Positions 25,746 to 32,446 of a stretch of 64,000 bases of DNA are shown piece after piece; within the stretch, counting starts at the first letter, position 1, and each line of letters starts with the position of its first letter. The DNA is taken from NCBI GenBank assembly GCA_963727825.1, contig CAVSHO010000009.1, positions 352,001-416,000 of the forward strand. The letters are read 5' to 3'. Below the pieces are notes generated by a model. It saw nothing but the letters and a program-made list of their open reading frames with translations. It made no database searches and was not told the DNA's origin. Made by a program: the position numbers and the translations under genes. Source of the stretch: Ignavibacteriota bacterium. GTDB taxonomy: Bacteria > Bacteroidota > Ignavibacteria > UBA10030.

Positions 25746-25854
25746 CCTCATGTTGGAAGGGAGTTTCACTCCCGACCTTTGCTTGCTCGGGAGAACATCT
25801 CCCTCGCAACTTTGTTCCAAAACACAAAACGCTGATGATGTTTACACCACCTGC
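25746..25854. repeat. ~110-bp direct repeat A: REP doublet plus degenerate copy 2 of the terminator hairpin
   Basis: GGAAGGGAGTTTCACTCCCGA...TCGGGAGAACATCTCCCTCGCAAC followed by CAAAACACAAAACGCTGATG; nearly identical to 26489-26598. Confidence 0.85.
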
Positions 25855-25877: not shown

Positions 25878-26464
25878 TTAAAAGAATAGTACATCTTTTG
25901 GGGTTTCTTTGTCAAATGTCCATGTAATGACATTATTGGCAATGTAATCGCGGATGTTATTTAATTCTTTTTCATTGCGGATAATTCGGTCATAATATCT
26001 TGGCTGCCAAAGCGGTGTATCCCCCGCACCGGTTAAATGCATTTCATTGATTCGTTTTGTAACAGCAGATTTGAATGACCTCACAATTGTCGACAATGAA
26101 CCAGGTACTGGTTTCCTGAATTGTTCCAGTAGTAGGGACGCGGCATGCCGTGTCCCTACTGATTCATTCAATATTAATATTCCATGAATATGGTTCGGCA
26201 GCCGGAGGCCTTAGAATGTTGCCCCGCATCGTGGGGCACCTTCTTTTCATATTCATCCAATACAACATTCGAAAAATGCTCCGGAATTCCTTTCCAACAT
26301 CTATTAATAATATTTCCCTCCTCATTCAAATTCATCTTACCGTCTACAATTGCACCAAACCTGTGTTCATGATTTTGTGCACAAATTGTTACAAAATATT
26401 CTCCCGGCTGGGAATAATCAAATCCTTTAAGGCGAATCGTTTTTCTTTTATGCTTTTCTATCAT
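25878..26464 (-). mobile_element. REP-associated tyrosine transposase (RAYT/TnpA-REP, Y1 HUH) pseudogene
   Basis: RKTIRLKGFDYSQPGEYFVTIC, HUH motif PNHIHG (different frame after a ~40-bp insertion), SLSTIVRSFKS, WQPRYYDRIIRNEKEL...YIANN. Confidence 0.85.
26132..26159. repeat. GTAG-type REP palindrome inside the RAYT coding sequence
   Basis: GTAGGGACGCGGCATGCCGTGTCCCTAC. Confidence 0.8.
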
Positions 26465-26488
26465 CAACACGATTTCAAAACACAACCG

Positions 26489-26598
26489 CCTCACGCTGGA
26501 AGGGAGTTTCACTCCCGACCTTTGCTTGCTCGGGAGAACATCTCCCTCGCAACTTTGTTCCAAAACACAAAACGCCGATGATGTTTCCAACACCGGCG
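26489..26598. repeat. ~110-bp direct repeat B: REP doublet plus copy 3 of the terminator hairpin
   Basis: Matches 25746-25854; hairpin at 26561-26598 lies just after the serine hydrolase stop. Confidence 0.85.
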
Positions 26599-27991: not shown

Positions 27992-28119
27992 AGCGTTACT
28001 CCTTGTTTATAGAAATTGTACGTTTGACGTTGGCTGTAAAAGATTGTTCCGTCCGACCATTGTGCCATACTCTCCCGAGAGTCAAACTGATGCTCCGGAG
28101 TGATAAGGTAAGCCACTTT

Positions 28120-28156
28120 AAAACACAAACGCCGATGATGTTTCCACCACCGGCGC
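28120..28156 (-). terminator. Repeated terminator-like hairpin, copy 4 (after the RT gene)
   Basis: AAAACACAAACGCCGATGATGTTTCCACCACCGGCG on the plus strand. Confidence 0.75.
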
Positions 28157-28198: not shown

Positions 28199-29041
28199 TT
28201 AATCCGTGTCTTTTACCATTCTCTTTAGATCATCAGCCTGTTGAGGATTTACATATGCTATATAGTCAATTTTCCCTTTGATCGATTTATAGCTTCCTTT
28301 TAAGTTCTTTTTGTAGTCAACAATTTCATGTTTCACGGCATCAACATAACGTTGATTAACCCTTAGTTTAGGATATACTCCAATTCCCATTATCTCTCTT
28401 GGAGATTTGTTATTAAAGACCTCAAATTCATCAAGTAGAAATCCATGCTGTCTAAATATTTTTACAAATAATCTTTGAAACCCTGCTGGGTCAAAATCTG
28501 ACCCAATCACTAAATTGTCTGCATACAGACCGACTCGGAACGCCTCTTTTCCCGCCAATCCGTCGAGTCGAATTATTACAGGATTTAAAGTAAGTGCAGC
28601 AATTTTTGGACTTGTTGGAAATCCTTGAGGAAGTTCAAAATCAAAGGTTATTATTCTTGTAATTAGTTTTGCTGCAGGATTATCAAAATTCAAACCCATG
28701 AGTGTTTTTGTCACCATTGCAGGATAGATTGTAGGATAAAAATCATCGACATCCGCTGCAATCAAGAACTTCGACTTTGAAAATTGAGAAAGCATTTTGA
28801 TATGATTACATCCAGGTTGTAAAAAAAGGAATTTATGCAAAGTGAATTGGCTTAAGATCATCTTATTTATTTTGCGCAACAGATCTTTTAATTCCTCGTT
28901 TGGACATGTGATATCTCGATATCCTCCACTCTTCTTTGCCTTCTTCCGCTTTTTCACCATATAAGACAGATTGCGTGCAATAAAAGAAAGATACTCTTCT
29001 CTTTTATTAAGACGATTCGCAATCTCCTGGATTAAGATCAT
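28199..29041 (-). CDS. Retron-like reverse transcriptase with non-canonical motifs (start ATG 29041 or TTG 29053)
   Basis: KKSGGYRDITCP (RT1), ADVDDFYPTI (RT3), LPQGFPTSP (RT4), LYADNLVI (RT5), IMG (at the VTG position), C-terminal GKIDYIAYVN; about 280 aa with no maturase, Cas1 or nuclease domain. Confidence 0.85.
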   Translation of the reverse strand: MILIQEIANRLNKREEYLSFIARNLSYMVKKRKKAKKSGGYRDITCPNEELKDLLRKINKMILSQFTLHKFLFLQPGCNHIKMLSQFSKSKFLIAADVDDFYPTIYPAMVTKTLMGLNFDNPAAKLITRIITFDFELPQGFPTSPKIAALTLNPVIIRLDGLAGKEAFRVGLYADNLVIGSDFDPAGFQRLFVKIFRQHGFLLDEFEVFNNKSPREIMGIGVYPKLRVNQRYVDAVKHEIVDYKKNLKGSYKSIKGKIDYIAYVNPQQADDLKRMVKDTD

Positions 29042-29053
29042 TGAGGTGAACAA

Positions 29054-29296
29054 TTAATAAGATTGAATAAGTAGTGTTCGTTGGGGTTCTAAATAAGTTT
29101 TGTGGGAGAAGCTCACGATGATCGAGATTAACTTAGCAATAAATTCTAAAACTCTTAACAAAAAACCCAAAGGTTTTTCATTCCGATTTAAGAATTTAAC
29201 AAACTTACTTTTCTTTCTCGAATATCTATAAAGCTTCTCCCTTCTCCTGATTCGATTATAACATCGAATTAAGCGAAGTACAAGCTTCCTTTTCAT
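29054..29296 (-). CDS. Small basic protein with hydrophobic/amphipathic helix, candidate RT-associated effector
   Basis: Strong AGGAGG Shine-Dalgarno upstream of the ATG; K/R-rich N-half; LGFLLRVLEFIAKLISIIVSF helix; in frame with the RT. Confidence 0.65.
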   Translation of the reverse strand: MKRKLVLRLIRCYNRIRRREKLYRYSRKKSKFVKFLNRNEKPLGFLLRVLEFIAKLISIIVSFSHKTYLEPQRTLLIQSY

Positions 29297-29581
29297 GTTC
29301 TTTTCCTCCTTTCTAATCGTTTAGTGGAACATATCATTATGAATCGATGATTAGTCGCCACAATGCCTGTACTTTCAAAACTTGAAAAAAAACGCATAGA
29401 GCGTTTCGTTTTATCCATGCATTGCACTGTATAAATTTCTGCAATTGCATAATTGTCTAATAAACAGATATATATTCTCCTATTTATTAGAAATTCTCAG
29501 ATTGGTTTGAACACATATACCCAAATCAACCGAGATACGGCTAGTTTCGCCGGGAAAAGAGGCTAACCTTAGAACATGAAA
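29291..29581 (-). ncRNA. Putative RT-associated structured ncRNA (msr-msd-like)
   Basis: Perfect 11-bp terminal inverted repeat TTTCATGTTCT/AGAACATGAAA enclosing hairpins at 29539-29568, 29495-29535, 29456-29491, 29417-29450, 29390-29406 and 29313-29354. G-U pairs in the first three favour the minus strand. Confidence 0.7.
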
Positions 29582-29689
29582 TTTCAAAGAACATCTAACA
29601 ACTAAAACAAAAAACATTTCTTAAAAAATATTATCAAGAAAAACCGTTCGTGTTTCCATCCCACCAAACAACGTCGGGACGTCAGCATA

Positions 29690-32446
29690 TCAGGAACATC
29701 CTGATGTGCTTCCACACTCCAGACATTTGTAACACGAGCCGCTTCGAATCATAATGCTTCCGCACTCGTGGCATGGAGGTGCATCGGATTGTGTTTCAAA
29801 TACAAATTTCTCGTTCTTCTCCAGCACCGAGGCAGCTTTTGTCGCCGCAGCATTGAGAATCGCACCCGGTTTTTTCGCAGTCTCTGCACTAATTTTTACA
29901 TCGCTCATTGGCGCCTCACCGCGATCCTCTATAAGGAACTTCTTACCAAGCCATCGGAAAATATAATCGCTAACCGACTTTGCAATCGGTATCTCCGGAT
30001 TGTTAGTAAAACCGGATGGTTCATAGCGCGCGTGGCTGAACTTATCCACCAGCACTTTCAGCGGCACACCGTACTGCAGAGCAATCGAAACAGACGTTGC
30101 CAGAGAATCCATTAATCCGGAAATCGTGGAACCCTCTTTAGACATCGTTATGAACAACTCGCCGGGTGATCCGTCTTCAAACATCCCGACGGTGATATAA
30201 CCTTCGTGGCCGGCAATACTGAATTTGTGCGTGATAGATTGGCGTTCATCCGGCAAATGCCGCCGGGCAGGTTTGTTACTTATCTGCAGTTTTTCCTTTT
30301 TCTTGTCGAGTGAAGTACTGAGAGGCTGTGTACGCTTGCATCCGTCGCGGTATACAGCAATAGCTTTTAATCCAAGTCTCCATGCTTCGGTATACGCTTT
30401 CATGATATCTTCTGCATTCACATCGGTCGGCATGTTCACAGTTTTGGAGATCGCACCGGAAAGGAATGGTTGTGATGCCGCCATCATCTTAATATGCCCC
30501 ATATAGGGAATGAAGCGCTTGCCGTTTGCCGGTTTGAATGCGCAGTCAAATACCCGAAGATGTTCTTCCTTCAAATGCGGCGCACCTTCGATTGTGTCGT
30601 TCTTATCGATATAAGAAATAATGTGTTCAATCTGTTCATCGTCGTAGCCCAATTTCGTGAGTGCTTCCGGCACTGTTTGGTTGACGATCTTCATCAATCC
30701 GCCACCGCTCATCTTTTTATACTTCACAAGAGCGATATCAGGTTCAATTCCTGTGGTGTCACAATCCATCATGAACCCGATTGTGCCTGTCGGAGCAAGA
30801 ACTGTCGTTTGCGAATTGCGGATGCCGTGCATTCGTCCAAGTTCAACAACATCTTTCCATACGTTACACTGCGCTTCCCATAGACTTGGTTCTACCGCAT
30901 TCTTATCGATGCGTTCTGCGTGAATGCCATGTTTCGCCATCACGTTCAACATCGGGTCTTTATTTACTGCGAATCCGCTAAACGGTCCTTGTGCTTGAGC
31001 AATCTTAGCAGATTGTTTGTACGCTTCGCCACTCATTAATGATGTGATAGCAGCGGTTAATGTTCTGCCCTCATCGCTATCGTACGCAACACCGCGGGAC
31101 ATCAGCATTGCGCCGAGGTTTGCATACCCGAGTCCGAGCGGGCGATAGTCGTGGCTGTTTTGCGCAATTGCCGGTGTCGGGTAACTCGAGTTATCAACGG
31201 ACATTTCCATTGCGGTAATTGTAACCTGAATAGCTTTTTTAAACGCTTCCACATCGAGATCGCCGTTTGCCCTACGAAACTTCATCAGGTTCAAAGATGC
31301 AAGGTTGCATGCACTGTCATCAAGGAACATGTACTCGCTGCAAGGATTGGATGAATAAATCGGTGCGGTACCGGAACATGTGTGCCAGTTGTTGATCGTT
31401 GTATCAAATTGAATACCCGGGTCGCCACATATCCATGCTGCATCGGCAATTTGTTTCATCAGATCGCGCGCGCGGAATTTTTCTACCGGCATTCCGCCTT
31501 TTACAGCTTTGGTCCAAAATTCCTTATCTTCCAGAACAGCTTTCATGAATTCATCGCTTACACGAATAGAGTGATTGGCGTTTTGATAGAACACAGAATC
31601 ATACGCGCCGCCTGGAACATTGAATCCACCGTCGTAACCCGCATCGATGAGCGCACAAGCTTTTTTCTCTTCTTCCGCTTTACAATTGATGAAACTGATA
31701 ATATCCGGATGGTCGACATTTAATATTACCATCTTTGCAGCGCGGCGTGTCTTGCCACCGGATTTAATCACGCCTGCAAACGCATCGTACCCTTTCATAA
31801 ACGAAACCGGGCCGGATGCAGTACCGCCGCCGGTAATGCGTTCCTTGGAAGAACGAAGTGTCGAAAGATTAGAACCTGTGCCCGAACCGTACTTAAAGAG
31901 CATACCTTCTGTCTTTGCAAGCTCCAGTATGGAGGTCATTGAATCTTTCACTGAATTAATAAAGCAGGCCGAACATTGCGGCATTTTTTCTACACCCACA
32001 TTAAACCATACCGGGCTGTTGAAGGACATATATTGATTGACGAGAATGAAGACCAGTTCATTATAAAATATTTCTGCGTCTTCTTCCGACGCGAAATAGC
32101 CATCTTTCAAACCCCAGGCATAGTACGATTTTGCAACACGGTCGACAAGCTGACGTATGCTCGTTTCACGCTCTGGAGTACCCATTTGACCATAGAAATA
32201 TTTTGAAACAACAACATTAGTTGCAGTCATTGACCAAAACTTTGGGATTTCTACATCTTTCTGTTCAAAGATTTTTTCACCACGATCATTTGAAATAATT
32301 GCAGTGCGTAGTTCCCATTCAATTTCATTAAAAGGATGAATACCTCGTTTAGTAAAGTACCGCTCAAAACGCAATCCGTGTTTTTCTGTGGCGTGCATAT
32401 TATTATGAGAATCTACCGAAACATTGGCTGGTTGCAAATTCTGCAT
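29690..32446 (-). CDS. nrdJ: Class II (adenosylcobalamin-dependent) ribonucleotide reductase with C-terminal TSCPD/Zn-ribbon
   Basis: QCSACFI, NPCSEY, LGLGYANLG, APTGTIG, GAISKTVN, C-terminal CHECG...CLECGSTSGCS. Confidence 0.95.
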   Translation of the reverse strand: MQNLQPANVSVDSHNNMHATEKHGLRFERYFTKRGIHPFNEIEWELRTAIISNDRGEKIFEQKDVEIPKFWSMTATNVVVSKYFYGQMGTPERETSIRQLVDRVAKSYYAWGLKDGYFASEEDAEIFYNELVFILVNQYMSFNSPVWFNVGVEKMPQCSACFINSVKDSMTSILELAKTEGMLFKYGSGTGSNLSTLRSSKERITGGGTASGPVSFMKGYDAFAGVIKSGGKTRRAAKMVILNVDHPDIISFINCKAEEEKKACALIDAGYDGGFNVPGGAYDSVFYQNANHSIRVSDEFMKAVLEDKEFWTKAVKGGMPVEKFRARDLMKQIADAAWICGDPGIQFDTTINNWHTCSGTAPIYSSNPCSEYMFLDDSACNLASLNLMKFRRANGDLDVEAFKKAIQVTITAMEMSVDNSSYPTPAIAQNSHDYRPLGLGYANLGAMLMSRGVAYDSDEGRTLTAAITSLMSGEAYKQSAKIAQAQGPFSGFAVNKDPMLNVMAKHGIHAERIDKNAVEPSLWEAQCNVWKDVVELGRMHGIRNSQTTVLAPTGTIGFMMDCDTTGIEPDIALVKYKKMSGGGLMKIVNQTVPEALTKLGYDDEQIEHIISYIDKNDTIEGAPHLKEEHLRVFDCAFKPANGKRFIPYMGHIKMMAASQPFLSGAISKTVNMPTDVNAEDIMKAYTEAWRLGLKAIAVYRDGCKRTQPLSTSLDKKKEKLQISNKPARRHLPDERQSITHKFSIAGHEGYITVGMFEDGSPGELFITMSKEGSTISGLMDSLATSVSIALQYGVPLKVLVDKFSHARYEPSGFTNNPEIPIAKSVSDYIFRWLGKKFLIEDRGEAPMSDVKISAETAKKPGAILNAAATKAASVLEKNEKFVFETQSDAPPCHECGSIMIRSGSCYKCLECGSTSGCS

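Follow-up and report, generated by a model that had tools for sequence, protein, structure and literature searches.

A closing stem predicted to cover the start of a small protein gene in a minimal, Type VI-like retron cassette of an Ignavibacteriota bacterium

A 64,000-nt stretch of contig CAVSHO010000009.1 from an Ignavibacteriota bacterium (hereafter the window) carries on its minus strand a compact retron cassette in which both the Shine-Dalgarno (SD) sequence and the AUG of a small protein (SP) are predicted to be buried in the closing stem of the adjoining non-coding RNA, an arrangement that, in computed folds, is conserved in related loci. On its sequence features the locus is filed here as Type VI-like, in a minimal variant that lacks an HTH gene. 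It is distinguished by this lack, by a reverse transcriptase (RT) with YADN in its active site, by a rare SP family and by a closing stem that takes in the AUG as well as the SD. The reading that we favour, and on balance consider probable, is that the two helices of the stem (H1 and H2) silence SP and probably a coupled RT, that SP is an effector, and that infection leads to opening of the lock through RNA remodelling that depends on the RT.

Read along the minus strand, the gene order is a class II ribonucleotide reductase (RNR) gene, a 390-nt gap with no convincing ORF, the 80-aa SP ORF, a 280-aa retron-type RT and a GC-rich hairpin. The RNR gene occupies 29690-32446 (minus strand; Pfam Ribonuc_red_lgC, 2.8e-145, with Ribonuc_red_2_N). 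A promoter-like site upstream of the RNA (TGGAAA, 17 nt, GATAAT; 29630-29658, minus strand; 9 of 12 matches) is weak evidence, and eight such sites were found in the region compared with 5.4 expected from shuffles. RNA, SP and RT are presumably co-transcribed as a single transcript. At the end of the cassette, the GC-rich hairpin with its T-rich tail (28129-28156, minus strand) sits inside a repeated element (28119-28155).

The GC content between 28000 and 29600 is 33-37%, compared with 44-50% in the flanks, and by its sequence the cassette is an AT-rich insertion of approximately 1.5 kb between the RNR stop codon and the repeated hairpin element. In G189, G073 and G261, genomes of the same genus, that element lies approximately 115-185 nt past the RNR gene with no retron sequence between the two; the three same-genus retron-free sites are loci L034, L035 and L038. 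The retron occupies the same site as in the window, behind the RNR gene, in relatives L001 and L002, while in L036 and L037 the RNR gene is present and the repeat is absent.

The repeated element is a GC-rich, REP-like palindrome of 33-38 nt with three copies in the window (approximately 25819-25854, approximately 26562-26598, and 28119-28155), and it recurs downstream of the RNR gene in relatives. Two ORFs flanked by REP-like copies (25878-26171 and 26174-26593) had no Pfam match at 1e-5; an IS200/RAYT-like label considered for them (25878-26593) was dropped, as Pfam support was absent at this threshold.

The first-pass annotation had read the minus strand at the SP start as AGGAGG, AAA and then the 3' arm of an inverted repeat, with the ATG of the 80-aa ORF lying inside that arm. 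The sequence bears this out: AGGAGG occupies 29310-29305 and is followed by AAA (29304-29302) and the arm AGAACATGAAA (29301-29291), and the ATG at 29296-29294 opens the ORF 29296-29054. The SD ends 3 nt 5' of the arm and 8 nt 5' of the ATG. The inverted repeat is 11 nt long and 100% complementary (29291-29301 with 29571-29581), with 269 nt between its arms. Its 3' copy forms the 3' arm of H1 and holds the SP start codon (29291-29301, minus strand; seen in the sequence, the inverted repeat and the fold), and its 5' copy, TTTCATGTTCT, forms the 5' or anti-AUG arm (29571-29581, minus strand; seen in the inverted-repeat listing, the MFE fold and the RNAalifold consensus).

A second helix had been overlooked in that annotation. 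Directly inside H1, CCTCTTTTC (29562-29554) is paired to GAAAGGAGG (29313-29305) to form H2, both arms being on the minus strand. The 5' arm is an anti-SD (29554-29562; MFE folds, RNAalifold and pair counts) and the 3' arm is the Shine-Dalgarno region itself (29305-29313; sequence, folds and RNAalifold), so that the SD is predicted to be sequestered along with the AUG. The MFE structure of the 351-nt RNA closes with H1 and H2 (-87.1 kcal/mol, z = -2.73), a stability matched by 1 of 100 shuffles.

The 11-mer alone is weak evidence, because the same search lists 48 inverted pairs within 851 nt. When the SP initiation region (-20 to +10) was compared with the upstream 360 nt using RNAduplex, the pairing energy was -23.5 kcal/mol, and none of 300 dinucleotide shuffles was as low. 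Of 36 other ORF starts in the window, 4 reach the same raw energy, so the case rests on composition-matched shuffles and on conservation. Among strain variants in contigs of sequencing runs X1-X4, of which X1 spans the whole stretch, the arms of H1 and H2 are unchanged apart from 29288/29289 (SP codon 3).

Relatives with an RT of at least 37% identity comprise seven loci (L001-L007); L005 repeats L004 and L007 repeats L006, leaving five distinct loci. The layout of RNA, SP and RT is common to L001, L002, L003 and L006; in L004 the YADN RT is present, and the SP ORF and both RNA boxes are absent nearby. Conservation of the overlap between inverted repeat and ATG had been proposed as a check on the annotation, and pairing of SD and AUG with a 5' arm does recur in four of the five distinct loci (L001, L002, L003 and L006). 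Independent MFE folds of the window and these four relatives pair the SD to an anti-SD and the AUG to a CAT in the 5' arm, with the AUG paired in 5/5 sequences. Pairing of the five SD bases to the first 70 nt has P of at least 0.89, again in all five sequences; for L003, the printed AUG probabilities are those of an out-of-frame AUG 5 nt upstream, and the pair list places the true AUG with U33, A32 and C31. In the duplex shuffle tests, the observed energy was equalled or bettered by 0/300 shuffles for the window, 0/300 for L001, 1/300 for L002, 0/300 for L003 and 16/300 for L006.

The start-codon arms vary by clade: ATGAAA/TTTCAT is replaced by ATGAGA/TCTCAT in L003 and by AGATGA/TCATCT in L006. 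The RNAalifold consensus contains H1, H2, a hairpin (hairpin A) and two further hairpins, and 19 of its 55 pairs have at least one change on both sides. When the closing helices, hairpin A and a candidate crossing helix (H0) are taken together, 89.4% of cells are paired, compared with 43-57% when the partners are slid, and five pairs are changed on both sides, a count reached by 4 of 500 shuffles. None of the H2 pairs is changed on both sides, this helix varying only via G-U pairs, and covariation is thin because there are only five sequences, three of them close. The MAFFT alignment shifts the L006 AUG by two columns. A structured non-coding RNA with terminal inverted repeats is thus found next to the RT, and it has several internal hairpins with compensatory changes; a search of Rfam at E <= 10 gave chance-level matches only, all far below gathering scores.

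The 48 inverted pairs and the 4 of 36 control starts would also suit a reading in which the pairing is without function and arose by chance from AT-richness and from the start codon's near-palindromic CATG. This reading is already disfavoured by the retention of the pairing in four relatives, down to 38-40% RT identity (L003 and L006) and with different arm sequences, and by the same layout in three HTH-carrying loci; we give it next to no chance.

Just 5' of the 5' inverted repeat is a 5' box (29585-29596, minus strand; alignments and H0 pair counts), part of which (29596-29589) would be the 5' strand of H0. The core of this box, TCTTT..AT (TCTTTGAAAT in the window), is invariant in 7/7 aligned loci, including three HTH-carrying Type VI loci. 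The 3' strand of H0 would be a pre-SD segment (29315-29322, minus strand; pair counts and constrained folding). A complement to the 5' box adjoins the SD in every locus: it immediately precedes the SD in L003 and L006 and, by eye, also precedes it in L008 and L012, and a complement can also be seen by eye in the SD-AUG spacer of the window. H0 forms 7-8 of 8 pairs in L003 and L006 and 6-7 of 8 in the subclade of the window; overall, 85% of cells are paired and one pair is changed on both sides. Because H0 crosses H1 and H2, it is either an alternative to them or part of a pseudoknot. Forcing H0 costs from +4.8 (L006) to +17.5 (window) kcal/mol and leaves the initiation region of the window fully unpaired. 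With five sequences compared, H0 is a possible switch partner, to be taken as a lead and not a finding. With respect to the a1/a2 priming stem, H0 is as good a candidate as the H1/H2 stem.

Directly past the anti-SD lies hairpin A (29538-29552, minus strand; folds, RNAalifold and pair counts), whose CGGC/GCCG stem has 4/4 pairs formed in all five sequences, one of them changed on both sides (CGAC/GTCG in L006). Hairpin E (29382-29406, minus strand, with its stem at 29390-29406) is followed by a T-run and is terminator-like, although located mid-RNA; it is seen in the sequences and in folds. Hairpin E and a following CAAGT-type motif can be seen by eye in four related loci with different stem letters, and its columns are unpaired in the RNAalifold consensus. 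Hairpin E could yield a short RNA with a free 5' arm acting in trans. Short ORFs within the RNA (29293-29427 and 29480-29617, minus strand) appear "conserved" in L001, and the N-terminal extension of database protein P0022 derives from translation of RNA-region sequence in an L003-like locus; both look like gene-calling by-products of a conserved RNA.

The SP gene (29054-29296, minus strand; 80 aa) was delineated from its ORF, a profile search and codon-position differences. The N-terminal half of the protein is very basic (18 K+R in 42 aa) and is followed by a hydrophobic helix that spans approximately residues 43-63, and the protein ends in a conserved S-x-K-T-Y/C motif. The ORF runs to 80 codons in the window and in both L001 and L002, and to 108-109 in L006 and L003, and differences between the window and L001 are distributed 3/10/19 over the three codon positions. 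A profile search of 1.84 billion representatives recovered nine proteins at E <= 1e-3, all with the basic N-terminal half, the hydrophobic helix and the S-x-K-T-Y/C end. By its kept length, its codon-position pattern and these nine family representatives, the SP ORF looks real. AlphaFold (AF2) models SP as one long helix (pLDDT 79.9), which offers too few features for searching by fold; SP had no Pfam or PADLOC match and no usable match in the ESM Atlas, and comparison of its profile with five SPs from HTH-carrying loci gave no similarity (hhalign probability 0.1).

In the window, L001 and L002, the RT begins 12, 12 and 8 nt beyond the SP stop; in L003 and L006 it begins 29 and 41 nt ahead of that stop, all of these starts being first-start guesses. 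No SD-like motif was seen ahead of the RT start of the window. This spacing and the absent SD-like motif suggest that SP and RT are translationally coupled. The same observations, made in all five loci with respect to spacing, would agree with a different role for SP, as would its overall composition (22 K+R vs 4 D+E in 80 aa): it could be a basic, nucleic-acid-binding accessory of the RT and not a toxin, the stem then exerting autogenous stoichiometric control over a coupled SP-RT operon. However, the conserved hydrophobic C-terminal helix matches the part of the Retron-Vpa2 SP that is reported to be required for toxicity (Zhang et al., bioRxiv 10.1101/2025.10.22.683967), and the SPs of both characterised Type VI retrons are described as toxic in their preprints; an accessory role is therefore one that we hold to be very improbable. 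By analogy with these systems, SP is likely to be a growth-arresting effector and is presumed to be toxic.

The RT (28199-29041, minus strand) is predicted to start at ATG 29041, because its homologues are 280 aa long. It was identified using Pfam (RVT_1, 4.2e-12), PADLOC (hits to 39 retron RT models, led by RT_II-A at 1.1e-34 and RT_VI at 2.3e-34) and alignments. Motif C (residue 176) reads YADN: the catalytic YxDD expected of retrons is absent, and the first motif C Asp is retained. YADN is invariant in nine aligned RTs and in L003, L004 and L006, and its conservation holds for the whole clade and extends to members with about 37-42% identity. Other relatives have WIDD (HTH-carrying loci) and YYDD or YADD (L020, L022 and L024). 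The motif A aspartates and LPQGFPTSP are invariant, and all other polymerase motifs are intact. A full-text literature search for YADN with reverse transcriptase returned nothing on RTs, as judged by title or abstract.

The equivalent change in HIV-1 RT, D186N, has been used as a mutant that disrupts metal binding at the polymerase site (PMC1976467), and polymerase activity is reported to be abolished when D185N is combined with D186N (PMC5498913). The cassette is presumed to synthesize msDNA, and this is uncertain because YADN equals the D186N change. One could go further and suppose that the YADN RT is catalytically weak or dead, that no msDNA is made, and that the RT is an RNA-binding repressor or sensor holding or releasing the stem. 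The invariance of YADN in a family whose other members have WIDD, YYDD or YADD is consistent with this proposal, as are the HIV-1 mutants and the report that SP neutralisation in Vpa2 needs no catalysis (10.1101/2025.10.22.683967). It is opposed by the invariant motif A aspartates, LPQGFPTSP and first motif C Asp, which are as in a working polymerase, and by the conservation of the Asn, which suggests a tuned rather than a lost site and not drift; moreover, defence is described as requiring RT catalysis in both Vpa2 (10.1101/2025.10.22.683967) and Sen3 (10.64898/2026.04.27.721009). We consider a dead RT quite improbable.

A search of a phylum sample with the RT profile gave a match in 1 of 401 genomes, that of the window itself. 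Viral contigs had no RT relative, and plasmids had only RTs at 27% identity or less. The sources of the clade are environmental metagenomes and one Wenzhouxiangella MAG. The locus shared by L004 and L005 (2091-3882) encodes a YADN-clade RT without an SP gene or ncRNA boxes and may be a decayed or rewired copy. Upstream in L004 is an ORF of 305 aa that has a hydrophobic N-terminus and overlaps the RT start; a nuclease-like label for this ORF was dropped, Pfam support being absent at 1e-5.

For the window, L003 and L004, only a few bits separate the scores of the RT_VI, RT_II-A and RT_III-A models, and RT_VI is the best model only for L006. In an RT tree of 26 rows, each cut to 360 aa and with no labelled reference RTs among them, the YADN RTs form a monophyletic clade (100/100) at the end of a long branch, and their deep placement has support of only 29/59; near-duplicates (P0001, P0002, P0007, P0008, L001, L002, L005 and L007) were omitted from the tree, as were six Prevotella-type loci and L023 (no ORF). 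One Type VI trait, a small accessory protein gene between the ncRNA and the downstream genes, is present and is kept in four related loci. Another, a Cro/C1-type HTH gene (cluster 2_1; Mestre et al. 2020), is missing: no such ORF lies between SP and RT or flanks them, and the HTH_VI model has no match within the window, its nearest match on the contig being approximately 100 kb away and the model itself being unspecific (matches in 13 of 14 control genomes). Among 158 Type VI entries, approximately 78% are reported to encode an HTH protein and about 22% are without one (10.64898/2026.04.27.721009).

Weaker relatives L008, L012, L019 and L021 have an SP-HTH-RT layout, and HTH_VI matches the middle ORF in each of the two that were scanned, L008 (4.3e-11) and L021 (2e-16). 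The 5' RNA domain of the window aligns with those of L008, L012 and L021, with the box, anti-AUG region and anti-SD in the same order. A duplex test of seven wider Type VI-like loci found significant long-range pairing in these three; L019, L020, L022 and L025 did not pass, with 25 to 163 of 200 shuffles equal. In folds of L008, L012 and L021, the only wider loci folded and picked for passing the duplex test, the SD is paired to a 5' arm at P = 1.0; AUG pairing is partial in L008 and L012 and absent in L021.

A predicted fold that sequesters a start site is not proof of a switch, because in Retron-Sen3 (Garcia-Rodriguez et al., bioRxiv 10.64898/2026.04.27.721009) the ribosome binding site (RBS) of SP lies in the basal stem and yet SP is described as constitutive: tagged SP is detected without phage, and the HTH protein neutralises SP at the protein level, independently of RT and ncRNA. 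By the same token, the stem studied here might be structural, serving RT recognition or priming, with the start overlap arising from compactness and SP made constitutively at a low level and checked post-translation as in Sen3; terminal inverted repeats are indeed reported to be a general retron feature (10.64898/2026.04.27.721009). However, with the HTH gene absent from the cassette and its surroundings, no candidate protein antitoxin is seen except the RT itself, and burial of both SD and AUG (5/5 sequences) is a tighter lock than the RBS-only case. We judge a purely structural stem to be unlikely, though of some weight.

The favoured reading, a stem that silences SP until the RNA is remodelled, would operate as follows. 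Structured RNA, SP and RT would constitute one "hybrid RNA" in the sense used for Vpa2, where the term covers msr-msd and the SP coding sequence (10.1101/2025.10.22.683967). The newly made 3' end of the non-coding part would pair with the 5' arm transcribed about 270 nt earlier, giving a ground state in which H2 buries the SD and H1 the SP AUG. Because both are buried, SP would be translationally silent, and the RT would probably be silenced too because it starts 12 nt past the SP stop with no SD-like motif seen. Once the stem is opened or bypassed, SP, with its basic N-terminus and hydrophobic C-terminus, would likely arrest growth, resulting in defence. The trigger and the opening step we infer. 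The likeliest route would be RT-dependent RNA remodelling, either by reverse transcription and template loss or by msDNA on the RNA as in Vpa2; a possible alternative is a flip to the crossing helix H0, by which the initiation region would be freed. A bolder version would make the cassette a two-gene retron with the closing stem as sole antitoxin, the YADN RT as RNA-binding sensor or slow gated polymerase, an H0 flip that fires defence, and little or no msDNA. We think this version unlikely; if it were true, the retron would be a cis-acting RNA toxin-antitoxin switch.

To our knowledge, Type VI is the one retron group in which toxin control has moved to the RNA level, and its two studied examples disagree as to whether an RNA lock or an HTH protein is the working control. 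A natural HTH-less version with SD and AUG locked and an altered RT site is a clean test case: if the cassette defends against phage, the RNA lock and the RT must suffice, and the YADN site would reveal the amount of reverse transcription required for a switch of this kind. The cassette is also very small (about 1.5 kb) and thus suited to study or engineering.

Outside the retrons, the arrangement resembles that of hok/sok-type type I toxin mRNAs, in which a long-range 5'-3' fold-back keeps the mRNA of a small hydrophobic toxin inert until it is remodelled. Long-range 5'-3' pairing over the start of a small hydrophobic protein is common to both; unlike in hok/sok, no antisense RNA gene is evident here, and the RNA that represses belongs to a retron template and is linked to an RT.

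The cassette shares with the Sen3/cl2075 lineage a structured ncRNA within about 280 nt of the SP start, terminal inverted repeats, an SP RBS in the basal stem and a conserved element just 5' of the 5' inverted repeat (10.64898/2026.04.27.721009). Sen3 differs in having the order SP-HTH-RT, an HTH antitoxin and constitutive SP, whereas the present locus has no HTH gene and has the AUG in the stem together with the SD. The hosts reported for the Sen3 lineage are Beta- and Gammaproteobacteria, in contrast to the environmental metagenomes and single Wenzhouxiangella MAG of the clade described here.

Retron-Vpa2 is the nearest precedent for the proposed mechanism. The first-pass annotation had presented a translational switch for a toxic effector as a departure from known retrons; the stem over SD and AUG holds and is conserved, but the novelty of RNA-level control does not, such control being already in print for Type VI (10.1101/2025.10.22.683967), and for the present locus a switch of this kind is plausible only by analogy with Vpa2. 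As reported in that preprint, deletion of the non-coding part of the Vpa2 hybrid RNA makes the system toxic, SP translation requires msDNA, which derepresses it, and the HTH protein is part of the complex and represses reverse transcription. The present cassette differs from Vpa2 in lacking the HTH gene and in having YADN where the Vpa2 RT has YADD. The SP families are unrelated as far as can be tested with a Vpa2 SP known by description only. In Vpa2 the RBS and AUG are sequestered in local stem-loops of a second arm, while here both lie in a long-range closing stem. In both systems, RNA structure would hide the SP start, the protein itself is small and hydrophobic in its C-terminal part, an RT gene is located downstream, and template RNA and SP coding sequence would share one transcript, as is presumed for the cassette described here.
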